From Escherichia coli (GTDB lineage Bacteria > Pseudomonadota > Gammaproteobacteria > Enterobacterales > Enterobacteriaceae), in NCBI RefSeq assembly GCF_050920415.1, contig NZ_CP169309.1: 64,000 bases of DNA; one strand, given 5' to 3'. Shown piece by piece: positions 15,699-61,736 of this stretch. The position numbers and the translations under genes are program-made. Numbering within the stretch: position 1 is the stretch's first letter; each line of letters starts with the position of its first letter. The notes under the pieces are model-generated. The model had not been told where the DNA came from. It did not search any database and saw only the letters and a program-made list of their open reading frames with translations.

Positions 15699-17309
15699 TC
15701 AATGTTTCACAATATACATAGTCCGGCTATACGCCACATCTTCCGGGTTATTAATGGGATAACCTTTCAGCCACGGCTTGATTAATCGTCCATTGGTATA
15801 TTGATAAATTGGTGCAATCGGTGCTTGCTCCATGAGGATTTTTTCTGCCGCATTGTAATCGGCATTACGCGCTTTAACGGTATTTTCCGTCGATGCCTGG
15901 GCCAAAACTTTGTCGTAGGCCGGGTTGTTAAAGCGTGAAATGTTGCCTGAATGCGTTGACGTTAATAATGTCAGGAAGGTGGAGGGTTCATTATAATCCC
16001 CCACCCACGAGGCGCGGATAACATCAAAATTACCTGTATTACGACTATCGATATAGGTTTTCCATTCCTGATTTTGCAGTTTGACATCTACACCAAGGTT
16101 CTTTTTCCACATCGATGCCACAGCAATCGCAATTTTTTGATGGTTTTCTGAAGTATTATACAAAAGCGTCAGCTTCAGCGGTTTTTGCGGACCATAACCG
16201 GCTGCGCTCAACAAAGTTTTTGCCTGCGCATTCAGTTCTTCCTGACTCATTTGTTCAAACGGCGAAGGCTCCGGCGTGAATCCGGCAGTAACATCTGGCG
16301 TAAAATGCCACGCTGGTTTTTCGCCCGTCCCCAACACTTTTTCGGTCATCAGGCGGCGATCTATCGTCATACTTAATGCCAGACGAACGCGCTGATCTGC
16401 CGTCGGCCCTTTTTGCGTGTTAAACGCATAATAATAGGTTCCGAGCTGCGGCGGTGTATAAACCTGCCCCGGAATATCCTTCAACAGCTTCTGATACATA
16501 TTTTTGGGGAAGGATTCGGTGATATCAATATCCCCCGCGAGATAACGCTTAGTGGCTGCGGATTCCTGATTAATTGGCAGGAAGGTCACTTTTTGCAACA
16601 CCGTTTTGGCGTTATCCCAATAATGGGTATTTGGCACCACGACCAGTTTTTCATTGACTACACGCTCTTTAAGAACATAAGCGCCATTGCCGACCAGATT
16701 TCCGGGTTTCGTCCACTCTTTCCCGCTTTCTACGTTAGCTTTTTGCACCGGGAAGAAGGCAAAATTGGCTGTTAAATTCACAAACCACGGCAACGGTTTA
16801 TCAAGCTGGATTTTCAAAGTACGGGCATCAACCGCGGTGACGCCTAGCTGATCAGGCGTAGCTTTACCATCAATAATCGCCTGTGCGTTGTTGATTCCCG
16901 CCAGCGCGGCAAACCAGGCAAACGGCGACAACGTTTTTGGGTCAACCAGACGTTGCCAGCTGTAGACAAAATCCTGTGCCGTTACCGGTGTGCCATCCGC
17001 CCATTTTGCGTTATCGCGCAGGGTGAAAGTCCAGATACGGTTGTCATTACTTTTCCACTGAGTCGCAACGCCGGGGACAATCTCCCCTTTCTCGTTCTGA
17101 TTCACCAGTCCTTCAAAAAGATCGCGAATGACCTGAATCTCTGGCAGACCCACGGCTTTAGCGGGATCCAGCGACGCAGGCTCATCTTTAATATGGCGCA
17201 CCAGCTCCTGCTTCTCTGCCAGTACTGTGCCGCTCGGAACTTCTGCAGCATACGAAAGAGACATTATGCAAAGTGGCAAAAACGATATATAAATCATGAT
17301 TTTATTCAT
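15699..17309 (-). CDS. mppA: Periplasmic murein tripeptide-binding protein MppA with a non-K-12 (phage-derived) signal-peptide N-terminus
   Basis: Track ORF 15699..17345; start chosen at MNKIMIYISFLPLCIMSLSYA|AEVPSG (536 aa). From SLSYAAEVPSG onward it matches my recollection of MppA; the first ~16 codons are AT-rich and differ. Confidence 0.85.
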   Translation of the reverse strand: MNKIMIYISFLPLCIMSLSYAAEVPSGTVLAEKQELVRHIKDEPASLDPAKAVGLPEIQVIRDLFEGLVNQNEKGEIVPGVATQWKSNDNRIWTFTLRDNAKWADGTPVTAQDFVYSWQRLVDPKTLSPFAWFAALAGINNAQAIIDGKATPDQLGVTAVDARTLKIQLDKPLPWFVNLTANFAFFPVQKANVESGKEWTKPGNLVGNGAYVLKERVVNEKLVVVPNTHYWDNAKTVLQKVTFLPINQESAATKRYLAGDIDITESFPKNMYQKLLKDIPGQVYTPPQLGTYYYAFNTQKGPTADQRVRLALSMTIDRRLMTEKVLGTGEKPAWHFTPDVTAGFTPEPSPFEQMSQEELNAQAKTLLSAAGYGPQKPLKLTLLYNTSENHQKIAIAVASMWKKNLGVDVKLQNQEWKTYIDSRNTGNFDVIRASWVGDYNEPSTFLTLLTSTHSGNISRFNNPAYDKVLAQASTENTVKARNADYNAAEKILMEQAPIAPIYQYTNGRLIKPWLKGYPINNPEDVAYSRTMYIVKH

Positions 17310-17351
17310 ATATTTTTTAACCTTAAAATAATATGGTACACACAATGGTAC

Positions 17352-17381
17352 ACAAAAAGAAACGAGGCGTTAGCCTCGTTT
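17352..17381 (-). terminator. Rho-independent terminator after the tail fibre gene
   Basis: Minus strand AAACGAGGCtaacGCCTCGTTT followed by CTTTTTGTG. Confidence 0.75.
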
Positions 17382-17409
17382 CGCGGCGATGTTCTTCGCA
17401 CATCACCTC

Positions 17410-19782
17410 TTATTCTTCGCTTCCGGTCAACTGCTTAACAAGCGCAACCAGTTCGCTAACCTGATTTTCAAGATTGGTGATACGTTCATCCATGACAGTA
17501 ATGTTAGCACGTAAGCTGGCGTTTTCTTCTTCCAGTGCTGTAGCTTTCAACATTAAGGATTGTGTAACGTGCATTGTATCGAGCAATAAAGGCGTAGTAT
17601 CAAGCTCTTTCACCTCTATTTCTTTGTTGTTATTATCATAATGTGTTCTTGTTTTTACATATAACGGATCTATTAGTTCGGCTGATTGTGAAATAATGCC
17701 ACGCCGCACTCTTTCTTTTTCATCACCATTGAATACGAATGTTACGAAATCAAGGTTTTCTAAATTGCTCCACGCTTTATCTACGGTAGCGTGCTGCACA
17801 TTATGCTTAAATCTAATATCAGATATTGCATTTTTAGTAACCGTTGAGGTTTCTGTTACGGAATAATTATCCCATTTGGTAAAGTAAATGTTTGAATCAA
17901 ACGGGGCAATTTCAAGTCTTACTCCGTATTTGTTATCACTATCACCAACGCAGTTTAATGAAGTCCTAGCAAAACTAGTGGTATTGTGATGAATTAAACC
18001 GAGACTATACCAAGTCGCATACCCCGCTGAGGATGCTTGCCCTGCACTAAAATTGGAATTAAACGACCAGTTTTCACCTATATTAGTGTAAGGTACAACG
18101 AATGTTGCGCCGTGCGTTGGGATCTCACCCCAACTTAAAAGTTTTTGCGTTGTAGCCCTAAATGATGCTGATTCAAAAAGCCCGCTATCATTTACCGTAA
18201 TTCTCCCCTTGTTCCCTGATGTTTTATTTTCAACTTCAATAACTGCATAGTGGGATTGATCGATATACGCATCACCCCACATCGACACTTCGCATTCTGA
18301 GGCGTCACCGATCTTGTATACGGATTTTACAACACCTGTAGTTGATTTTGTTCCGGTTGATAGCCTTGTTTTGTCGGCGTTAATTACGCTCCAGGATGTA
18401 TTTGCAGCGGTAAAGCCACCAGATGCACGGATCACCCATACACCAACAAAGTTTCGTGTAAGAATTTCATCTGTTGATGCTCCATAAATCGGGCTACACC
18501 GTGACGCATCAAAAGTACATGTATTATAACGGCCTTCCAAAGCGGTTGTACCGCTAGGAATTGCATCACCTACACCGTCAGGAAATACACTGTTATCGGA
18601 GGAAAATGCACCATAAGATGTGCCAATGGCTTGCGCGTAACTCCCACCGGAATAAGTGGTAAAATAACCAGTAATATTTGGCGCGGCTGATTCAAATAGT
18701 TGTCCGTTTGCACTACTAACGCCACCATCACCTCGACCATAAAGCGCTCTGATCGATCCTTCTTGTATACCGTTTTTATCGGGAACGCGGAAAGTTGTTT
18801 CTCCGTCACCCGTGGAATATTTACCGCGTTGGAATTTATCAGCCAGCCATTCAGAATCATCTATAGCGCCCACCATTTGAGCGTAAGCCCACAATTCAGG
18901 CCAATCTGCACGGTTAAGTAATTGCCCGTCCGATGTAACCTCATAAGGCTGAATATAAGCGCGGCTATCGCGTAAGTGGAAATCCCCTACGCCGTAATTC
19001 ATAACACCGTTCATTGTTGGTCCGACTGTACCACTATTGATATAGTTCATTACCCAACGCATTGTTACAGCGTCGTAATCACTTACCGGATCGCCTGCTA
19101 ATGGCGTTGAACCTATTGGGCGAACGTTCAACCAGGCCGCCGCTCGGTCGGCAAGATCGGAAAGGTTATTTTGTATTCTTAGAAATGAATCCGGGTTTAT
19201 GTCGTTTTTGTACCCTTCCGCTATGTTTTTATATTCTTCGGCGTTAGCGGCGCTTTCTGCTGCGTTTACTGCCGCCCCTGTTGCGGTAACAGCCCCTTCT
19301 TCTGCTGTTTGTGCTGCTGCTTCTGCTGCTGCTTTAGATGATTCGGCGTCTGTTTTGTATTGCTGAGTTGTCGCTTTATCTGCGCTTACTTGCGCTGAGT
19401 CCGTGTGAACTTGGTTAACTAGTGCTATCAATCCATCAAGATCAAATTCCTGAAAAAATTCAACTGCGTTTGCAATTTCGGTTTCCTTGCCCTGATAGTA
19501 ACGCAGAGTTTCAGCAACATCTTGCGCTAAACCATCTACAGAAATCGAGTCTGAAAGCAGAATACTGAATTTTGTCCCGGCAGATATTGCAGGGTCGGCC
19601 GCAGGAGTTACTGATAATTCAGTTCCGCTCTTAATTTCGGTGATGGTAAATATCTGCACAGGATCGCTAACTGCAATCAGCGTGCACCCTTCCCGGATGA
19701 GCGAAAGCGGCGCGGTGAAGCTTGTCCCCAAGCCTGTAACAGTGTTACCACTAATAGCTATTGTTCCTGTTGTATAAATCAT
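17410..19782 (-). CDS. Tail fibre with C-terminal intramolecular-chaperone (peptidase S74-like) domain
   Basis: 790 aa; N-terminus typical of siphovirus side/L-shaped fibres; Ala-rich coiled segment; SDIRFKHNV...GIISQSAELIDPLYV resembles the S74 autoproteolytic chaperone; terminal coiled coil. Confidence 0.75.
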   Translation of the reverse strand: MIYTTGTIAISGNTVTGLGTSFTAPLSLIREGCTLIAVSDPVQIFTITEIKSGTELSVTPAADPAISAGTKFSILLSDSISVDGLAQDVAETLRYYQGKETEIANAVEFFQEFDLDGLIALVNQVHTDSAQVSADKATTQQYKTDAESSKAAAEAAAQTAEEGAVTATGAAVNAAESAANAEEYKNIAEGYKNDINPDSFLRIQNNLSDLADRAAAWLNVRPIGSTPLAGDPVSDYDAVTMRWVMNYINSGTVGPTMNGVMNYGVGDFHLRDSRAYIQPYEVTSDGQLLNRADWPELWAYAQMVGAIDDSEWLADKFQRGKYSTGDGETTFRVPDKNGIQEGSIRALYGRGDGGVSSANGQLFESAAPNITGYFTTYSGGSYAQAIGTSYGAFSSDNSVFPDGVGDAIPSGTTALEGRYNTCTFDASRCSPIYGASTDEILTRNFVGVWVIRASGGFTAANTSWSVINADKTRLSTGTKSTTGVVKSVYKIGDASECEVSMWGDAYIDQSHYAVIEVENKTSGNKGRITVNDSGLFESASFRATTQKLLSWGEIPTHGATFVVPYTNIGENWSFNSNFSAGQASSAGYATWYSLGLIHHNTTSFARTSLNCVGDSDNKYGVRLEIAPFDSNIYFTKWDNYSVTETSTVTKNAISDIRFKHNVQHATVDKAWSNLENLDFVTFVFNGDEKERVRRGIISQSAELIDPLYVKTRTHYDNNNKEIEVKELDTTPLLLDTMHVTQSLMLKATALEEENASLRANITVMDERITNLENQVSELVALVKQLTGSEE

Positions 19783-19941
19783 CTCAACAACTCCATAATG
19801 TTAACTTATGTGTCAATTCTACCATTTTGCGATCTGTGTTACATTTCTGTCTTATACAAAATGTATTTGTTGATTTACATCAATGTTGTGAAAATGCGGT
19901 TTGTGGATACTACAACCAACGAAACAACGGAGGGTAAGACA

Positions 19942-20181
19942 ATGAAAGGCTTAAAAAATATCGCTATCGCTGCAATGGTTGCTGGTCTGGTTGGTTGTGC
20001 TGATATGCCGAAACGTGAATGCACGGCAATTTATCAAACTGGCGGTAATGAGTATGCGGTTGCAGTCTTCGGTGTCGCGGATGTTGGTGGTCACAAAATG
20101 GCTAAGGCTGGGTATCCATTTAATTTTCAATGGGTGAGCGTTGACCACTTCAAGAAAACGGATTGCCCGGAATTGAATTAA
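19942..20181 (+). CDS. 79-aa lipoprotein, opposite strand to the tail genes (Cor/Llp-like superinfection-exclusion candidate)
   Basis: MKGLKNIAIAAMVAGLVGC lipobox; GGAGGG SD; lies inside track ORF 19798..20181. Confidence 0.65.
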   Translation: MKGLKNIAIAAMVAGLVGCADMPKRECTAIYQTGGNEYAVAVFGVADVGGHKMAKAGYPFNFQWVSVDHFKKTDCPELN

Positions 20182-20771
20182 TCATAGGCGTCGGTTTTAA
20201 TGGCGGTGATAGCGTTCCCGTGGTTAATATAGCCAGTTGGTGCATATACGCTACCCGCCTGGATGCCGTAAATTCTAGTTGTGCTTCCGTTGTAATAAGC
20301 CGCCGCATAAATGGATGCACTACCCTGTCCAACGAGCGCCCCTAACAATTGGGGGCAAATAGCATAAGAACCGGATAACGTTTGGTCTATATAAATTCCG
20401 CCGCTTGATCCTGCCGTCCCAACGGTTACAAGGTCTGTTAATATTCTTGATTCATTAGTTAGCACTAGTTCCCCGGAAGCGTTCCAAATAGCCATTCCCC
20501 ACTTCGGCAGCGATGGCGGGAAAATAGTGAAAATATACGCATACCCCGAACCAGCCCCGATTAGTAAAGTTGATGGGCTATTTCTATAAGCTAATACAGC
20601 GGCGGCGGTAGTGCTTTTTACAAATACCATCACGGGCTTCCCGGATGGCACGGCGACGGTTTGATTCGATGATGTTAATGTCACCCGTTCATATAAGCAA
20701 AGCGGCGTTGCTTCCGGTGTAACGAAAATATTCCCGTTACTTAATCTCAAATAAGCTCCGAAGGTTGCCAT
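20178..20771 (-). CDS. Hypothetical tail-associated protein (197 aa)
   Basis: Track ORF; ATGA-coupled to the upstream gene; shares the MATFG N-terminus with 20771..21082. Confidence 0.6.
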   Translation of the reverse strand: MATFGAYLRLSNGNIFVTPEATPLCLYERVTLTSSNQTVAVPSGKPVMVFVKSTTAAAVLAYRNSPSTLLIGAGSGYAYIFTIFPPSLPKWGMAIWNASGELVLTNESRILTDLVTVGTAGSSGGIYIDQTLSGSYAICPQLLGALVGQGSASIYAAAYYNGSTTRIYGIQAGSVYAPTGYINHGNAITAIKTDAYD

Positions 20772-21082
20772 TAAGCCACCTCCGCAAATATAACAATTTC
20801 ACACTGTGACGCGGGCCATATATTAGCGCCTACCGTATCCCCTGCCGAGGAAATGGAAACAGTACCACCCGAAATAGTGATCTTTCTGCGCGTCGTTGAC
20901 GTTGTGCCATAATCAAGCGTCATCCCATAAGATAATTTGCATCCGGTCGGCACTGTAAAGGTATATGTGCCGGATACCTGCCCGGATGATAAGGAAATAT
21001 AACCAACCACAACGGAAGGTTTAATTCCATAGTTATTAGCATTGCCGCTGGCGTCCCAGGTCGCTACGCCGAAAGTAGCCAT
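20771..21082 (-). CDS. Hypothetical tail-associated protein (103 aa)
   Basis: Track ORF; GGAGGTG SD; follows the J-like gene. Confidence 0.6.
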   Translation of the reverse strand: MATFGVATWDASGNANNYGIKPSVVVGYISLSSGQVSGTYTFTVPTGCKLSYGMTLDYGTTSTTRRKITISGGTVSISSAGDTVGANIWPASQCEIVIFAEVA

Positions 21083-21108
21083 AATTACACCTCCTTAATA
21101 AAAAACTG

Positions 21109-21125
21109 AGGCCGAACAAGTCGGC
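21109..21125 (-). terminator. Intrinsic terminator hairpin after the J-like gene
   Basis: Minus strand GGCCGActtgtTCGGCC followed by TCAGTTTTTT. Confidence 0.6.
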
Positions 21126-21134
21126 CCCTTAATT

Positions 21135-24100
21135 CTACCATGATCCGGTAATTCGCCCAATCTGGACGCGCAAAACCCCGTTACCGTCTTTTACCGAAAT
21201 AGTGGTATTAGTTAATTTCATCGCGCCCTCACCACTCACCGCGCCGTAGTTTTCGAATGTCCCGCCTTTATCCAGTTTCCATCCGGTACTGCCGGAAACA
21301 TAGTTATTTGACTGGATGTAAGAACCTATTTTCGCGTTGGTGATTGAGGCGTCTTTTATAAATGCTTCGCGAACATACATAGCGCCGTTTTCAACATAAA
21401 ATGGTGTCGTATATGTGCCGTTGGCGGCTGTCATTAATACGAAGCGGTCAACAAGAAAAATACATTGTGATTGCGTATTTGCGCCATCACCAGTTACCCC
21501 AAGCGATATTCCTGACGCGTATTTCATACCGTTGTTATCAGTAGCGATCTTGAGACTCCAAGTTGCCGACATATCACCATTAATATTGGTAATTGCTGTT
21601 TTGTTTTCCTCAATAAGCACTGATTGCCCATTAATTGATGCGGTTACTTCGCTAATTTGCTGCGCGGTTGCTTTTTCAAGCGTAACCATTGCTTGTTCAA
21701 GGTTTGTGACCTTCCCTTGAATATCATCACTTATTTTTGCTTCAAGCTCTGATAATGCTTTTGCTGTTGCCTCTTTTTCCGTTGCGACAACTTCATCTAT
21801 ACGCGTGATCTCTGCTTTTGATTGTTTCAACTGAGCGGAAAGTGTGCGTCTTGATGTTGTTTGAGCTACGGAATTATTAAGAAGCGCAATGGAAACGTTT
21901 TGCAAGCGGGCGCGAGTTTGTGTTAGTTCGCTATCCTGTTCCGAAAGCTCGACACCTATTTCGTCAATACGACTTTCATGAACCCCTAACCCCTCTTCGT
22001 TATTCTGGACGCGATTAATTAGATCTGATGTGGTATCCTTCAGATCGGTAACATCCCCTTTAAGTGTGCTCGTGTCACTAATCAACCCTTGAAATTGCTC
22101 GCTTTCCATGACTTCTTTCGTCACGAAATCTGTAATTTCGTCGAAGTCCTCCGTAGGCTTCCCGGATGCCTCAATAAAATCTGACACACCGAACGCGTTG
22201 CGGGTGCGAATGTACACATAATACATGTGGCCTGTGCTCATGCCGCCGAACGTCCATTGATAACCACGTCCGGTATACTGCGCTGACGTGGTTATGGTTG
22301 CCGGATCCGTAATCCTGTTTTCTCCGGCGTAATAAAATTCATATGCCGTATCAGTGGTGAGTGTTGTTTTGCTTATCGGGTAGACAGTAGCCTGAAATAC
22401 ACCAGGCACCCAATTTACACCGACAGGCGCGGATGGCGCTCCAATCACCAGATCGACGATGCTTTCTGCACCCTTCATGCCAGTGTCATTTCTGCCGCGA
22501 ACACCTAACGTGTATGAACCAGCATCAATGCCATAAAAATCATAACTGTATTTCGTGGTTTCATAGCTTTTAACCACCGCACCATCTGCATTGTATATGC
22601 GGATCTCGAATGTCATGCGATGAGTGGTAGTCTGTGTCTCCCACGTTGCGCGGCATTGAACTGTTTCCGATCCAATGTTTACTACCTTCAGATTTTCGAT
22701 GTTCGGCACACGGAAGTGATTAAGCGTGTCGCTGTTGATTTCGAAGATTGCGCCTTCATCGACTACGGCTTGTTTGTTAGGGTCGTGCTGCGCGGCTTCG
22801 ATAGTGTATACGCTGTTATTTTGTGTTTCTGCTACGCTGGTGATCCTACACAAAACTGGTTTTGCTGCGTTAGTTGATACAGCAAAAACAGTGCCATTTC
22901 GAATCCATGTTGGGGCCGCAGCAAGGGTGATATTGTTTCCGTTAACTCCGGTGATCTGGTGTTTTTTAAATTTGCCATCGCTATCAAGAAGGCTTATTGT
23001 GTCGCCAGCGGTCACATATTCAGAATCAACCTTATCTACAGTGATCACACGTCCATTGTTAGAGACAATACGACCGCCTAAGCGAGCGCCAGCACGGTTA
23101 TTGTCGAGTATCTCGATGATATCACCTGGCGTAAAGTGAATCGCGTCACGGGCCATTTTAAACGTGAATTTTGAAGGCTCGCGCTTCGCTGTTTCTATCA
23201 GCCATTTACCCGCCCGGTGCGCTTGCCCGCGTGATGTACACCCGAAAGCCTCCAGCGTGGTTTCGTTGTAGCCGTCACGGGCGATTAGTTCATCATCTGC
23301 GACATACTCTTTTGATTGTTCCCAGCCGTTTTCCGGATCAGTCCATGACACAATTACCGCGTTGTAGCATTCTGATCGCGCGATACTTGAACGGGTAAAT
23401 GCACCATCCACGACGTTTGCGTTAGTGATGGTTGCGATTGGGTCTTGTGGTGCATCAATCATTATAGTAAGGCGCTGACCATCCCATAACGCTATACCAC
23501 GGAACATCCCGGCGATGTTGTCCAGTAGGTCGCGGGCGCTCATTTGCTCTGTGATGTACGCGTTTAGCGTGACGCGCGGCTCTAAGCCACCATAGCCATC
23601 ATCAACCAACTGATCGCAGTATTGAGAGAGCGTATACAAAGCACCATCATCAACATCGATATAACCAGCCTGTCGAGCAAGGCCAAAACGCTCGTTTTTA
23701 ACCAAGTAGCGGAATATCCACGCCGGGTTATTTGTGTATGCCTTTTTAAGTCCGCCAAGCCATAAACCGGAATAATTTCGTTTTTCCGGGTCGTAGTTAT
23801 CCGGTACATCGACAATCAGCCCACGCAGATGATAAGTGCGTGTAGGTGTATCGGAGTACTGGTCATGGTCAATTACCGCGCCAGCTACAGCAGTGTGAGG
23901 ATAAGACAAGTTATCGTCGATGATTTCGCTATAACTGTTCCAGCGGGTATCGTTCTGTAATAGGTCGCTTACACTATCAGCCGTCACGCGGCGCACGCGA
24001 ATATCAAATGGCTTTTCATCCGGCGCATCAATGATATGAGACTCCAGATATTCACCGCTAATCTTACCCGGACCGATTTGTACGGCCTTAACCGCCGACC

Positions 24101-24554
24101 AGGTGGAAGACGAGGACGGTTTAACATCGATTGCCATAATGACAGACGTTTCTTTCTGGTTTGATTGGTTATCGCTTTCCACCAGTGAATCCACGCCAAT
24201 ATTTAGCCGGACGCGCGTCACGTTCGGATCTGATACCGTCCTGACCAGTGGCGTATCATGCTTTACCTGTGCGTTAACCATCACCGTTGATTCAATGGCG
24301 TTAAAGCCGTTGATCGGTGACTGGTCGGCAGTACCCGGACGCCAGGCGACACTAACGCCTGGAATGCTGGTATTACCTACCGCATCCGTAACAGGAGTGT
24401 CATTAAGCATTACGCAGTTTAACGGCGCGGCAGTATTGACAGGCCCATAAATCGGCCCTTCGCTCAATATATCAAGCACGCGATAAAACTGCTTATGGAA
24501 CAAGTTATCGTTTATTAATGTTGGTGTTTTTGCTTTACCACCGCCGCCGCCCAT
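21135..24554 (-). CDS. Tail tip host-specificity protein (lambda J family)
   Basis: 1139 aa (lambda J is 1132); follows I/K/L/M homologues in lambda order. Confidence 0.88.
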   Translation of the reverse strand: MGGGGGKAKTPTLINDNLFHKQFYRVLDILSEGPIYGPVNTAAPLNCVMLNDTPVTDAVGNTSIPGVSVAWRPGTADQSPINGFNAIESTVMVNAQVKHDTPLVRTVSDPNVTRVRLNIGVDSLVESDNQSNQKETSVIMAIDVKPSSSSTWSAVKAVQIGPGKISGEYLESHIIDAPDEKPFDIRVRRVTADSVSDLLQNDTRWNSYSEIIDDNLSYPHTAVAGAVIDHDQYSDTPTRTYHLRGLIVDVPDNYDPEKRNYSGLWLGGLKKAYTNNPAWIFRYLVKNERFGLARQAGYIDVDDGALYTLSQYCDQLVDDGYGGLEPRVTLNAYITEQMSARDLLDNIAGMFRGIALWDGQRLTIMIDAPQDPIATITNANVVDGAFTRSSIARSECYNAVIVSWTDPENGWEQSKEYVADDELIARDGYNETTLEAFGCTSRGQAHRAGKWLIETAKREPSKFTFKMARDAIHFTPGDIIEILDNNRAGARLGGRIVSNNGRVITVDKVDSEYVTAGDTISLLDSDGKFKKHQITGVNGNNITLAAAPTWIRNGTVFAVSTNAAKPVLCRITSVAETQNNSVYTIEAAQHDPNKQAVVDEGAIFEINSDTLNHFRVPNIENLKVVNIGSETVQCRATWETQTTTHRMTFEIRIYNADGAVVKSYETTKYSYDFYGIDAGSYTLGVRGRNDTGMKGAESIVDLVIGAPSAPVGVNWVPGVFQATVYPISKTTLTTDTAYEFYYAGENRITDPATITTSAQYTGRGYQWTFGGMSTGHMYYVYIRTRNAFGVSDFIEASGKPTEDFDEITDFVTKEVMESEQFQGLISDTSTLKGDVTDLKDTTSDLINRVQNNEEGLGVHESRIDEIGVELSEQDSELTQTRARLQNVSIALLNNSVAQTTSRRTLSAQLKQSKAEITRIDEVVATEKEATAKALSELEAKISDDIQGKVTNLEQAMVTLEKATAQQISEVTASINGQSVLIEENKTAITNINGDMSATWSLKIATDNNGMKYASGISLGVTGDGANTQSQCIFLVDRFVLMTAANGTYTTPFYVENGAMYVREAFIKDASITNAKIGSYIQSNNYVSGSTGWKLDKGGTFENYGAVSGEGAMKLTNTTISVKDGNGVLRVQIGRITGSW

Positions 24555-26511: not shown

Positions 26512-26617
26512 ACCGTGAATGCCAAAATGGATTGATAGCGTGATTTACAATATGTATATTTTACTCAAACGAACGGTAGTAAACAAAATGGCACAGTTTG
26601 GAACAGGATAGGACACT

Positions 26618-26776
26618 ATGAGATCCGCAAAATACGCAGAAAAAGTTTTCGTTGAAGTGAAAGGCGACATGAAAAAATTTATGGATGTTCTTATCAAAGA
26701 GATGGGAAAACCGTTCCATATAGCCGAACGTCAGTATTACGCTTGCAAGGCTAATAGCTACAACAGATACGCATGA
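26618..26776 (+). CDS. Moron small ORF (52 aa)
   Basis: My translation: MRSAKYAEKVFVEVKGDMKKFMDVLIKEMGKPFHIAERQYYACKANSYNRYA; AGGATAGG SD; ordinary composition, unlike the junk-like antisense track ORFs. Confidence 0.45.
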   Translation: MRSAKYAEKVFVEVKGDMKKFMDVLIKEMGKPFHIAERQYYACKANSYNRYA

Positions 26777-26798
26777 CAATAAACACAAAGGTAACACT

Positions 26799-26891
26799 AT
26801 GCAAAAATATCGTCTTGATGTGTGGATGGCTGGAAATAAAGATTGGGAAGGTTTCGGATTATTTGACAGCCGCGAACTGGCTAACGACTAA
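26799..26891 (+). CDS. Moron small ORF (30 aa), possibly the 5' piece of a longer ORF broken by in-frame TAA codons
   Basis: MQKYRLDVWMAGNKDWEGFGLFDSRELAND; same frame continues to 26934 and into 26964..27152. Confidence 0.3.
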   Translation: MQKYRLDVWMAGNKDWEGFGLFDSRELAND

Positions 26892-26972
26892 GGGGAAAAA
26901 CTTGTTAACTTCTTTGGACGGGCCAGGGAGTTTTAAGTAACCCCGGTACAGATAGAAAATAAGGTGGAAGAG

Positions 26973-27152
26973 ATGAAATACGATATTGATAACGACGCTT
27001 GCTTTAAACAAAACTTTGCGGATTCTATGGATCAGTCTTGCCCTGAAATACACGCACACGGTTTCCCGGCAGATAATCCAGACATGAAACGCGAATACGA
27101 AAAAGCGGCGAAAGATTTCTGCATCGACAATCTGGGCGCATTCGATAGATAA
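26973..27152 (+). CDS. Moron small ORF (59 aa, acidic, Cys-containing)
   Basis: Track ORF 26964..27152; ATG at 26973 preceded by AAGGTGG. Confidence 0.5.
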   Translation: MKYDIDNDACFKQNFADSMDQSCPEIHAHGFPADNPDMKREYEKAAKDFCIDNLGAFDR

Positions 27153-27161
27153 GGCGGCAAT

Positions 27162-27410
27162 ATGGCGAGGCGAAAACATAGCGATTATATGTACACGCTG
27201 AAGCAGGCCGCCCGCCTTATCGGTTATCATGAACACGAATTTATTGATTTGCTGATTGAGCGCGGGATTTTATACCAGGTCTGTTTAACGCTGTACCCGA
27301 AAGCGAAATACTTGCAGGAAAAGTTATTCATCATCATGACGGATGAAAACCAGGTTAATCACTCATTCGTCACTGCCAAAGGCGTTAATTATCTGCGCGA
27401 TAACTTATAG
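27162..27410 (+). CDS. KilA-C/ANT-domain-like protein (82 aa)
   Basis: YTLKQAARLIG...YPKAKYLQEKLF...VTAKGVNYLRDNL resembles the phage antirepressor KilAC domain pattern; AAGGCGG SD. Confidence 0.5.
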   Translation: MARRKHSDYMYTLKQAARLIGYHEHEFIDLLIERGILYQVCLTLYPKAKYLQEKLFIIMTDENQVNHSFVTAKGVNYLRDNL

Positions 27411-31385: not shown

Positions 31386-31536
31386 GATTTAACCTCATGC
31401 AAAATGTGATCTATGCATCTATTTTATACAAAATGTCTTTATTTTAACGATACCGTTTTGTATAGATGATGTAGGGAAAGATAGAAGAGATGCAGGAAGG
31501 ACGGATGTCCCGGAGGAAGTGAAAGAGGATAAGGAA

Positions 31537-31620: not shown

Positions 31621-31687
31621 ACAATATGCGTGTATAACTAAGTTAAAGGAAGCATTTAGCAAATCAGAATAATTACAGGGGTTGATT

Positions 31688-32101
31688 ATGAAACGGTTAG
31701 CAAAAATGGTACTTGCTGTGATTGCTGCACTGGCATTTAACGCGAACGCTAACGAGGCCATAAACATTAACTGTGAAGAAGTGGCAAACCATGTAGCCGC
31801 ATATCACGACATGATCAAAAAAGAACCAGCCGCACCCACAATTCTTTTTAAGGCAATTGATAAAAATTTTGAAGGGAAACCAGTTTGTGCTCGTTGGTTT
31901 AATTATGGCCTTGTAAACGAGGCTGCTGTAGGCGTAGTCTTTGAAAACAACAGCGAAATAAAAAACAGGATAGCTAACGAGTGTAAAGCAAATAAAGTTG
32001 CTTTCGCTGAAAGAATTTTTAATGAAGGCGGCGCTGGTGCAAAAAATCACGCAATTGTCGATTTAGGTAACGGTTTTATTGATATTGTTAGAATCAAATA
32101 A
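31688..32101 (+). CDS. Secreted (periplasmic) protein of unknown function, 137 aa, 4 Cys
   Basis: Track ORF 31682..32101; MKRLAKMVLAVIAALAFNANA|NEA signal peptide; AGGGG SD; opposite strand to the tail genes. Confidence 0.65.
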   Translation: MKRLAKMVLAVIAALAFNANANEAININCEEVANHVAAYHDMIKKEPAAPTILFKAIDKNFEGKPVCARWFNYGLVNEAAVGVVFENNSEIKNRIANECKANKVAFAERIFNEGGAGAKNHAIVDLGNGFIDIVRIK

Positions 32102-60298: not shown

Positions 60299-60589
60299 TT
60301 AATGGTAGCGGACTTTATCCAGGGGTTTTTCCCCTAAATGGCGTGGTTGCGTTGCGTGGTAGTAGCTGCCGCTTTCATTTTCCGTATACCATTTTACTGG
60401 TCCTTTGCGACGTTCTTTAATGCTATTTGGTTTGCATCTTTCCTCGTTTGCAAATCGAATAGCTTTATCCACATTGTCTGTTTTATTGATTGCAGGTGAT
60501 GATTTTCTTTCGTTTTCTCTTTTTATCCTTCTGCGTTCCCTGGCATTCAGTTTACTGTCACATTTGCCATACATAATTGTAACGCTCAT
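60299..60589 (-). CDS. Arg-rich 96-aa protein, N-like antiterminator candidate
   Basis: First gene after the PL-like promoter and nutL; NARERRRIKRENERK arginine-rich motif near the N-terminus; GGAG SD. Confidence 0.45.
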   Translation of the reverse strand: MSVTIMYGKCDSKLNARERRRIKRENERKSSPAINKTDNVDKAIRFANEERCKPNSIKERRKGPVKWYTENESGSYYHATQPRHLGEKPLDKVRYH

Positions 60590-60936: not shown

Positions 60937-60965
60937 AATATACGCCCCGTAAAACACCGAGTCAA
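60937..60965 (-). promoter_or_regulatory. PL-like sigma70 promoter
   Basis: Minus strand TTGACT, 17 nt spacer, TATATT; two copies of the 14-bp element immediately upstream (60967..60980, 60989..61002). Confidence 0.65.
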
Positions 60966-61088: not shown

Positions 61089-61736
61089 TTATGGCAGGTT
61101 TACGATCTTCGCATCAACCACCACACCTATGATTTTTGATTCTGGATTCATAGGGATTGGCGGATACAGAGGGTTGAGCGAACGTAAAAGCCTTTGACCT
61201 CCATCAATAATCAACTGTTTAAACGTCGGTATCTGCCCTTCCTCAAGCTGGGCTATAACCAGTTTGCCGTCAATAGCTGGCGCGTGCGGATCGACAAGTA
61301 TCATCGTCCCCGCTGGTATACTCAATCCTTGCGGCGCGTTCATTGATTCGCCTTTAGCTACCAGCCAATAACTATCATCTGAACAAATAACGCTAGTCGT
61401 AACGTGTGGTAATGTTGATCGCCTTGTATCATCCATATTGTTTACTGTGTCCTTCCAGTCAACAACCGGGTAACTGCCTAAATCACGCTGCGGCGCTCCC
61501 GGTAACGTGTTAGAAACAGAATCATCAATGACCATTCCATCATGTGTAACAGTGAATTGCCGACGACCAAGCGCCCGCATAATCCGCGCAATATCTTCAA
61601 GATTTGGCTCGCGGCGACCGTTAAGCCAGTGTGACAGGCCGCCTTTAGTTATCCCCATGAGATCCGCGAGTGAATCCTGGCTCATGCCTTGCGCTCGCAT
61701 GAGCTGCTTTGCTAAGTCATACCATTTTGTTTTCAT
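61089..61736 (-). CDS. CI-like repressor (XRE HTH plus S24 LexA-type autopeptidase domain)
   Basis: 215 aa; QDSLADLMGITKGGLSHWLNGRREP HTH; C-terminal GESM ... K pattern of S24 peptidases. Confidence 0.85.
   Translation of the reverse strand: MKTKWYDLAKQLMRAQGMSQDSLADLMGITKGGLSHWLNGRREPNLEDIARIMRALGRRQFTVTHDGMVIDDSVSNTLPGAPQRDLGSYPVVDWKDTVNNMDDTRRSTLPHVTTSVICSDDSYWLVAKGESMNAPQGLSIPAGTMILVDPHAPAIDGKLVIAQLEEGQIPTFKQLIIDGGQRLLRSLNPLYPPIPMNPESKIIGVVVDAKIVNLP

Follow-up and report, generated by a model that had tools for sequence, protein, structure and literature searches.

A link between the phage cor cassette and the outer-membrane transporter FhuA has been on record since 2006. The cassette is found in T1, HK022, N15, ES18 and phi80, all of which are FhuA-dependent, and the BASEL phages that carry it in full use FhuA without exception (10/10; PMC13164509). 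Phage T5 carries Llp, an outer-membrane lipoprotein that targets FhuA from the periplasm; in FhuA with Llp, the extracellular loops EL7 and EL8 turn inward and occlude the phage-binding site (PMC9586334). An AlphaFold 3 (AF3) model of KanT1 Cor together with FhuA docks Cor at the same place as Llp (PMC13164509). Lipoproteins of four sequence types are also encoded by the mEpimmI phages, a new non-lambdoid group described in 2025: type A (mEp021) excludes OmpA-dependent members and type C (mEp010) excludes LamB-dependent members as well as lambda, so that upon plasmid expression the mEp021 and mEp010 proteins each exclude their own receptor class (PMC11893012). Here, we analyzed a window of 64,000 nucleotides from Escherichia coli (assembly GCF_050920415.1, contig NZ_CP169309.1; all coordinates are those of the window) and, within a prophage that it contains, a small gene that we refer to as cor. 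Its product is most likely a Cor-family exclusion lipoprotein acting on FhuA.

A Cor-family lipoprotein gene

A first-pass annotation, made from the sequence without database searches, placed a Cor/Llp-type lipoprotein gene on the strand opposite to the tail genes at 19798-20181. These coordinates describe the longest open reading frame (ORF) there (19798..20181, plus strand, 127 aa), but the real gene is shorter, comprising the final 79 codons of that ORF from the ATG at 19942, with the N-terminus MKGLKNIAIAAMVAGLVGCADMPK. A 79-aa ORF with a classical lipobox (LVG before the cysteine) and a strong Shine-Dalgarno sequence (GGAGG), as had been described, can indeed be read in the sequence. The gene and its signals are as follows.

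19942..20181, plus strand: cor, encoding a 79-aa prolipoprotein (stop codon included in the coordinates) with a 61-aa mature protein from Cys19, as identified by ORF, translation, NF047972 and PHROG 1119
19942..19998, plus strand: lipoprotein signal peptide and lipobox, MKGLKNIAIAAMVAGLVG followed by CADMPK..., read from sequence
19929..19933, plus strand: Shine-Dalgarno GGAGG, 8 nt 5' of the cor ATG, read from sequence and kept in UMNK88 and Ecol_244

The signal peptide consists of an n-region with K2 and K5, a hydrophobic core of 12 residues and the lipobox L16-V17-G18-C19. It is thus a type II signal peptide with a lipobox cysteine and a compatible +2 residue (MKGLKNIAIAAMVAGLVG followed by CA), in which Cys19 is the predicted acylation site and signal peptidase is predicted to cleave before it. 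According to the established Lol sorting rule, an alanine at +2 directs a lipoprotein to the outer membrane; the residue after the lipobox cysteine is Ala, not Asp, so Cor would be expected to be sorted there.

We compared the product with the Cor and Llp families, and both were matched. Cor passes the NCBIfam model NF047972, "phage exclusion lipoprotein Cor," with 53.9 bits against a cut-off of 31 (residues 7-75 of 79, E 1.3e-14), and it matches PHROG 1119, "Cor superinfection exclusion protein," over residues 5-76 (E 3.6e-23). A Pfam-A scan at E <= 1 yielded no family for Cor; Bor, the example of an unrelated family whose homology the first-pass annotation had named as refuting its proposal, was among those not found. 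We then performed tblastn of Cor against 50,697 phage records, resulting in 212 matched records, nearly all labelled Cor or superinfection exclusion protein, with the top identities (60-65%) in T1-like Drexlerviridae and Dhillonvirus. Identity was 61% to the Cor of PeterMerian, 51% to that of T1 and 33% to that of phi80, with phi80/HK022-type Cor proteins at 33-36%. The homologue collection comprised 8 close relatives from a first search and 24 from a profile search, which is shallow for AlphaFold. Across 21 aligned homologues, G18, C19, C27, G57-Y58-P59-F60 and C75 are invariant; the signature of the Cor mature domain, two further cysteines and (K/R)AGYPF..(W/Y)VS, is present, with V65 and S66 near-invariant.

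Close DNA matches to the 601-bp query region were found in 3 of 5,426 complete E. coli genomes (UMNK88, Ecol_244 and M15; 87-90% identity). The Prokaryotic Genome Annotation Pipeline (PGAP) annotates the same 79-aa gene as "cor" in the UMNK88 and Ecol_244 prophages, in the same gene order; Cor is 94-96% identical to these two proteins, and the coding sequences agree at 94-95%. The ratio of nonsynonymous to synonymous substitution rates (dN/dS) is 0.12 versus UMNK88 and 0.07 versus Ecol_244, and cor is therefore under purifying selection. Given the family E values, the PGAP calls in two related prophages and the low dN/dS, cor is a genuine gene and not a chance ORF.

Four unannotated records labelled "Campylobacter phage" (A16a, A15b, A144 and A13a; MG065636, MG065637, MG065648 and MG065679) carry T1-type Cor genes that are 60-64% identical, and one Campylobacter-labelled record (C13) also has an 85% match to E. 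coli-type tail fibre DNA. These Campylobacter jejuni-labelled records are probably mislabelled or contaminating coliphage sequences.

Relationship to T5 Llp

Aligning the Cor profile with full-length T5 Llp by hhalign gave a probability of 94.8% (E 5.4e-8, 71 columns, 25% identity), and both mature cysteines of the two proteins line up. T5 Llp itself scores 1.1e-19 against PHROG 1119, the PHROG to which Cor belongs. By these sequence comparisons, Cor and T5 Llp are remote homologues, related at the superfamily level rather than closely. The Cor/Llp-type proposal is thus well borne out, with a score above the NF047972 cut-off, a full-length match to PHROG 1119, 51% identity to T1 Cor and a profile that aligns end to end with T5 Llp. 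As a side note, T5 llp/lpp (NC_005859.1, 110429-110662) bears the RefSeq label "Cor superinfection exclusion protein," which is carried from PHROG 1119, where Cor and Llp are merged.

A sequence search of the PDB found no Cor structure. The top sequence matches were designed repeat proteins, which we rejected as artefacts of repeated weak matches, while a search with the Cor profile finds T5 Llp (8a60_B, E 0.0017). The AlphaFold2 model, built from 21 sequences, has five beta strands and a predicted local distance difference test (pLDDT) score of 80-91 in the mature part. In a Foldseek search of the PDB with this model, 8a60_B, the Llp chain of the FhuA-Llp crystal, ranked fourth, with a target-normalised template modeling (TM) score of 0.56, a root-mean-square deviation (rmsd) of 2.7 A over 52 columns and 27% identity; it was the sole top-ranked match above 20% identity. 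This search returned nothing at E <= 0.001, and Tudor and chromo-like small beta barrels ranked beside Llp, so that the match is at most compatible with an Llp-like fold.

The cor cassette and its likely receptor

The neighbors of cor are the following.

17410..19782, minus strand: side (lateral) tail fibre gene, 790 aa, with a C-terminal S74 intramolecular chaperone domain (PHROG 6921, E 1.2e-188; Pfam Peptidase_S74)
20178..20771, minus strand: 197-aa gene, second after J, of the T1 gp31 / phi80 gp23 / N15 gp23 family (PHROG 425, E 5.5e-50)
20771..21082, minus strand: 103-aa gene, first after J, of the T1 gp32 / phi80 gp22 / N15 gp22 family (PHROG 557, E 1e-28)
21135..24554, minus strand: J-like central tail fibre / tail tip protein, 1139 aa (Pfam Phage_Tail_Tip, FNIII-A_GpJ, Ig_J and Phage-tail_3; PHROG 31)

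All of these lie on the minus strand, confirming that cor is transcribed against the tail operon, and their coordinates agree with its described placement between the tail fibre gene and the two post-J genes. The start of the side tail fibre gene is divergent from cor, and the cor stop overlaps the stop of the convergent 197-aa gene at 20178-20181 (ATTAAT). A promoter/terminator scan of 19500-20500 detected no terminator in either direction; with the stops overlapping, cor and late tail transcription would therefore collide.

The order J, ~100 aa, ~200 aa, cor is shared with T1, PeterMerian, phi80, UMNK88 and Ecol_244, and all three small proteins are homologous. The 197-aa protein is 70% identical to its counterpart in PeterMerian, 45% to phi80 gp23 and 42% to T1 gp31; for the 103-aa protein, the values are 60% (PeterMerian), 52% (phi80 gp22) and 41% (T1 gp32). 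Neither protein has a family in Pfam-A or NCBIfam. Rather than a free-standing moron, cor is the third small gene, and the end, of an extended cor cassette (see also PMC13164509). The earlier description of an opposite-strand lipoprotein moron was correct as to the strand, but this orientation is standard in T1 and its relatives rather than unusual, and the gene belongs, together with the two post-J genes, to a receptor-specificity cassette. Recent work treats the locus of these two genes as coding for the receptor-binding protein, and the 197-aa protein is a candidate FhuA-specific receptor-binding or accessory protein.

Which receptor the cassette serves was assessed by comparison with phages of known receptor. 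PeterMerian, GeorgBuechner, JakobBernoulli and LeonhardEuler need FhuA experimentally (BASEL S5 table, PMC8594841), and JLBYU41, JLBYU37 and Teewinot are FhuA-dependent (PMC10373560). All three cassette proteins have homologues in the FhuA-dependent phages T1, PeterMerian and phi80; the closest phage homologues of Cor (60-65%) belong to phages experimentally shown to require FhuA, and every phage homologue from tblastn whose receptor could be looked up is FhuA-dependent. The locus downstream of gpJ is occupied by four unrelated protein families, specific for FhuA, BtuB, LptD or YncD (preprint 10.64898/2026.04.02.716166), and mEp021 and mEp010 are OmpA-dependent and LamB-dependent, respectively (PMC11893012). 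As control loci, we used the regions downstream of J in phages with experimentally assigned receptors; no homologue of any cassette protein was found in the post-J loci of KarlJaspers (BtuB, 50 kb), AugustePiccard (LptD), IsaakIselin (YncD), mEp021 (OmpA) or mEp010 (LamB). Because the cassette has homologues in FhuA phages and none in the other-receptor loci checked, FhuA is most likely the target of Cor, as judged by sequence homology.

We also considered the C-terminus of J as receptor evidence. The best matches of its last 250-321 aa are to FhuA-dependent lambdoid phages (45-47%). We dropped this evidence, as it did not discriminate FhuA from BtuB phages, so the receptor is assigned from the cassette alone.

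Two further observations concern the neighboring genes. The 103-aa and 197-aa proteins both start with MATFG, and the N-terminus of the 103-aa protein has a similar counterpart within the 197-aa protein, at residues 88-101; this resemblance suggests that the larger protein may be a tandem duplication of the 103-aa domain. J is 1139 aa long here versus 1680 in UMNK88, 1350 in Ecol_244, 1727 in mEp021 and 1707 in mEp010, and it seems to lack most of the internal repeat region that is described from the J proteins of mEpimmI phages.

Proposed mechanism and alternative explanations

We propose the following mechanism. The 79-aa precursor would be exported, lipidated on Cys19 and cut by signal peptidase II, leaving a 61-residue, all-beta mature domain with a probable C27-C75 disulfide. 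Mature Cor would bind the periplasmic face of FhuA, the TonB-dependent ferrichrome transporter, and lock it in a conformation unusable for FhuA-dependent phages, the phage's own virions included. The outcome would be superinfection exclusion, together with the sparing of released progeny from dead-end adsorption to debris. FhuA use itself would be specified by a portable receptor-specificity cassette consisting of J, the ~100-aa gene, the ~200-aa gene and cor. From the homology to T5 Llp, we infer that Cor may share its mode of action, and we likewise infer the processing of Cor, its outer-membrane location and the timing of its expression.

Several points weigh against this proposal. The case for this allele is built on sequence and model comparison. 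The sequence match to 8a60_B is partly due to the signal peptide, and the Foldseek match to Llp is not significant by itself (E 0.085). Cor is just 33% identical to phi80 Cor and reaches a maximum of ~60-68% with any phage homologue. Over the C-terminal 250 aa of J, similarity to the BtuB phage KarlJaspers is 38.8% versus 38.4% to the FhuA phage PeterMerian. A consensus scan of 19500-20500 found neither a plus-strand sigma-70 promoter nor a terminator for cor. Llp-like proteins occur in BtuB-dependent T5-like phages, such that Cor/Llp-like proteins are not strictly FhuA-specific on their own, and one Tempevirinae group has Cor with a single partner gene (PMC13164509).

The protein and its target could be as proposed while the main role of cor is lytic conversion, with early expression after induction or infection protecting progeny from FhuA in debris; we consider this possible, if doubtful. 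In virulent phages, T5 Llp and T1 Cor have been described as acting in this way (PMC9586334, PMC13164509). The element upstream of cor (see below) also adjoins a PL-like early promoter downstream of a CI-like repressor gene, which hints at co-regulation with early genes. On the other hand, the temperate phages phi80, N15 and HK022 reportedly exclude FhuA phages through Cor, as Uc-Mass in 2004 and Hernandez-Sanchez in 2008 are said to have found. The two roles are not mutually exclusive.

It is considerably less probable that Cor blocks another outer-membrane receptor used by the prophage, such as BtuB or another TonB-dependent transporter. Proteins of the Cor/Llp-like kind, unaccompanied by the complete cassette, are known in BtuB-dependent phages (PMC13164509), the sister mEpimmI phages use OmpA or LamB (PMC11893012), and the Cor described here is at most ~60-68% identical to any phage Cor of known receptor. 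However, the three-gene cassette is complete and each gene resembles its FhuA versions, with the 197-aa protein, at 42-70%, exceeding the 30% family threshold (10.64898/2026.04.02.716166); the BtuB, LptD, YncD, OmpA and LamB loci gave no match, and all homologues that could be looked up are FhuA-dependent.

An unrelated conversion lipoprotein (Bor/Iss-like serum resistance or an Lpp of mEpimmI type A or C) or a gene remnant that is decaying and unexpressed would fit the generic features alone (small size, lipobox, tail-gene position) and is highly improbable, as no Pfam family including Bor was found, type A is PHROG 4281 and type C PHROG 12984, neither of which is Cor's, and the ORF is intact with family-invariant residues kept and a dN/dS of ~0.1. 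We accordingly rejected Bor-like, type-A/type-C Lpp and pseudogene identities for cor, which the family tests and the intact ORF contradict.

The prophage and its lipoprotein slot

The window opens with 17.2 kb of E. coli chromosome carrying abgABT and mppA. Thousands of E. coli genomes are homologous up to a point ~462 nt along the query, near 17262, which falls within the 5' end of mppA; the window beyond ~17262 is a prophage integrated there. Its structural module resembles MagusPhagus, mEp010, mEp021, mEp044, mEp554, mEp515 and mEp013 (83-88% nucleotide identity), with 76-78% of 17400-42300 aligned to MagusPhagus, mEp010 and mEp021 at 83-88% identity. The mEpimmI phages integrate in ydaM, abgT or mppA, with integrase type III, as in prophage LSU61, directing integration in the mppA initiation region, and the prophages of UMNK88 and Ecol_244 are counted among them (PMC11893012). 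We found three mEpimmI traits, namely the similarity of the structural module, ORFs for a CI-like repressor and an arginine-rich motif, and the mppA junction; the prophage belongs to the mEp021-like mEpimmI group. PMC11893012 makes no mention of Cor or FhuA for these prophages, either in its main text or in its supplements.

At the prophage-chromosome junction (~17262-17345), the first codons of the MppA ORF come from the phage (MNKIMIYISFLPLCIM...) and are joined to the host signal-peptide end SLSYA/AEV. Judging from this sequence, a hybrid MppA signal peptide seems to be retained.

Comparing 19700-19890 with Ecol_244, mEp021 and mEp010, we found that conservation extends from the tail fibre start codon across a palindrome (described below) to ~19885. 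Past ~19885, the four mEpimmI genomes diverge into three unrelated lipoprotein genes, encoding Cor, type A and type C. A conserved upstream region followed by divergent genes points to a conserved slot that takes different exclusion genes; the expression slot looks fixed, and the exclusion genes in it exchangeable.

A palindromic element upstream of cor

The first-pass annotation had noted copies of a 14-bp element upstream of the gene. A local repeat search of 17300-21200 did not recover this element; it emerged from k-mer counting across the whole window as a palindrome with the core TACA-N3-TGTA. The 15-mer TATACAAAATGTATA, allowing <=3 mismatches, occurs 16 times versus 3.0 expected, always within the prophage, and the exact core occurs 7 times in the prophage versus 0.67 expected and 0 times in the 17 kb chromosomal flank. 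The palindrome is thus ~10-fold over-represented in the prophage. The element is therefore real, but one clear copy, not several, lies upstream of cor: the flanking TACA..TGT stretches (~19840 and ~19876) fail to match it, their spacer being 4 nt rather than 3. The copies and a candidate promoter, picked out by eye, are as follows.

19853..19867, plus strand: palindromic element TATACAAAATGTATT, core TACA-N3-TGTA, the 14-bp element of the first-pass annotation, found by k-mer counting
19855, 26546, 28135, 36241, 56846, 60288 and 63767: exact TACA-N3-TGTA cores
31425, 46506, 53228, 60964, 60986, 61772 and 62817: degenerate copies of the element
19867..19895, plus strand: candidate promoter with TTGTTG (19867-19872), a 17-nt spacer and an extended -10 TGtGAAAAT (19887-19895)

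With this promoter, the palindrome would be centered near -42 of the putative cor start. Its position is kept upstream of the lipoprotein genes in Ecol_244, mEp021 and mEp010. Elsewhere in the prophage, the palindrome at 26544 precedes 26618, the first gene of another opposite-strand moron cluster, with a spacing of 60-90 nt, and the palindrome at 31425 precedes a plus-strand ORF at 31682. The degenerate tandem pair at 60964 and 60986 lies immediately upstream of a PL-like promoter (TTGACT-17-TATATT) between a CI-like repressor gene (61089..61736) and an arginine-rich N-like gene (60299..60589). Palindromes occupy matching places in mEp021, where the proximal tandem copy and the PL-like promoter are also kept. 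The mEp021 GenBank record contains no annotated operators.

The palindrome marks moron and early promoter regions across the phage group, and its dyad symmetry suggests a dimeric regulator; it is probably the operator of such a phage protein. We tentatively propose, as an idea that may well prove wrong, that this regulator is the prophage's own, possibly the CI-like repressor, and co-regulates all opposite-strand moron cassettes of the tail region with the early promoters. The locus would then be a dedicated "exclusion slot," controlled by this regulator through a conserved promoter and operator. Lipoproteins of unrelated families (Cor/FhuA, type A/OmpA, type C/LamB) would be swapped into it together with the receptor-binding genes that match them, with virulent T1-like phages among the partners in exchange.

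The minus-strand tail operon contains more opposite-strand clusters of small genes, at 26618-27410 (+) and 31682-32101 (+), which are syntenic with mEp021 genes 71-74 and 63. An 82-aa ORF in these clusters sits at the position of the mEp021 "putative antirepressor."

Implications

Taken alone, cor is an ordinary, already named phage gene in a known extended cor cassette; its close relatives are already called "phage exclusion lipoprotein Cor" by the NCBI annotation pipeline, and the gene itself adds little. The small novelty is that the cassette sits in an mEpimmI prophage. This predicts that the prophage and its relatives in UMNK88, Ecol_244 and M15 use FhuA, which would be a third mEpimmI receptor class next to OmpA and LamB, the two shown so far, and it would give a function to lipoprotein types left untested in the mEpimmI paper (PMC11893012). 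It is also a case of one FhuA cassette, at 60-70% protein identity, moving between different backgrounds, here virulent T1-like phages and a temperate phage of unrelated backbone. That a slot bearing the element is shared suggests that genes for receptor binding and exclusion are exchanged as modules, with virulent T1-like phages among the partners. Lysogens carrying cor are expected to resist T1, T5 and phi80-type phages, which is relevant for phage therapy and for fermentation strains, and may be altered in ferrichrome uptake and in sensitivity to albomycin and colicin M.

Comparison with known systems

The nearest described relatives are the Cor proteins of T1, PeterMerian, JLBYU41 and GeorgBuechner (Drexlerviridae, Dhillonvirus), which belong to the same family at 51-65% identity and are encoded in the same cassette order. 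The T1-type Cor shares the lipobox, the cysteine pair and the AGYPFNFQWVS motif with the protein described here, and in T1 and PeterMerian cor is convergent on the opposite strand, exactly as in this prophage. The surroundings differ: T1-type phages are virulent and have recombination genes beside cor, whereas this is a temperate mEp021-like prophage with a side tail fibre gene after cor. In T1, cor and gp31 are separated by a bidirectional terminator, whereas here the stops overlap and no terminator was found.

The temperate lambdoid phages phi80, N15, HK022 and the mEp lambdoids share the order J-gp22-gp23-cor-tail fibre and the association with FhuA. Their phi80-type Cor is only 33-36% identical, however, and the backbone is unrelated, mEpimmI phages being non-lambdoid (PMC11893012). 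The cor gene of phi80 runs in the direction of the tail genes and has a terminator of its own behind it, whereas here cor lies on the opposite strand.

T5 Llp (PDB 8A60) is a remote homologue in PHROG 1119 whose small beta fold may be similar; its sequence is too distant to fit the Cor equivalog model. The T5 gene llp lies next to the pb5 receptor-binding gene oad and points away from it, whereas the neighbors here are the 103-aa and 197-aa J-associated genes and the side fibre gene.

Within the same phage group, Lpp021 (type A) and Lpp010 (type C) occupy the same slot as cor, flanked by J and the side fibre gene and encoded on the opposite strand, and have the same upstream palindrome region. 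They belong to unrelated families (PHROG 4281 and PHROG 12984, respectively) and are tied to OmpA and LamB, not FhuA. In BLASTP of Cor against the mEp021 Lpp (gp81), the signal peptide alone matches (E 0.018); the type C protein of mEp010 is gp116. Cor and these two lipoproteins thus have the slot and its upstream region in common and differ in family and in receptor.

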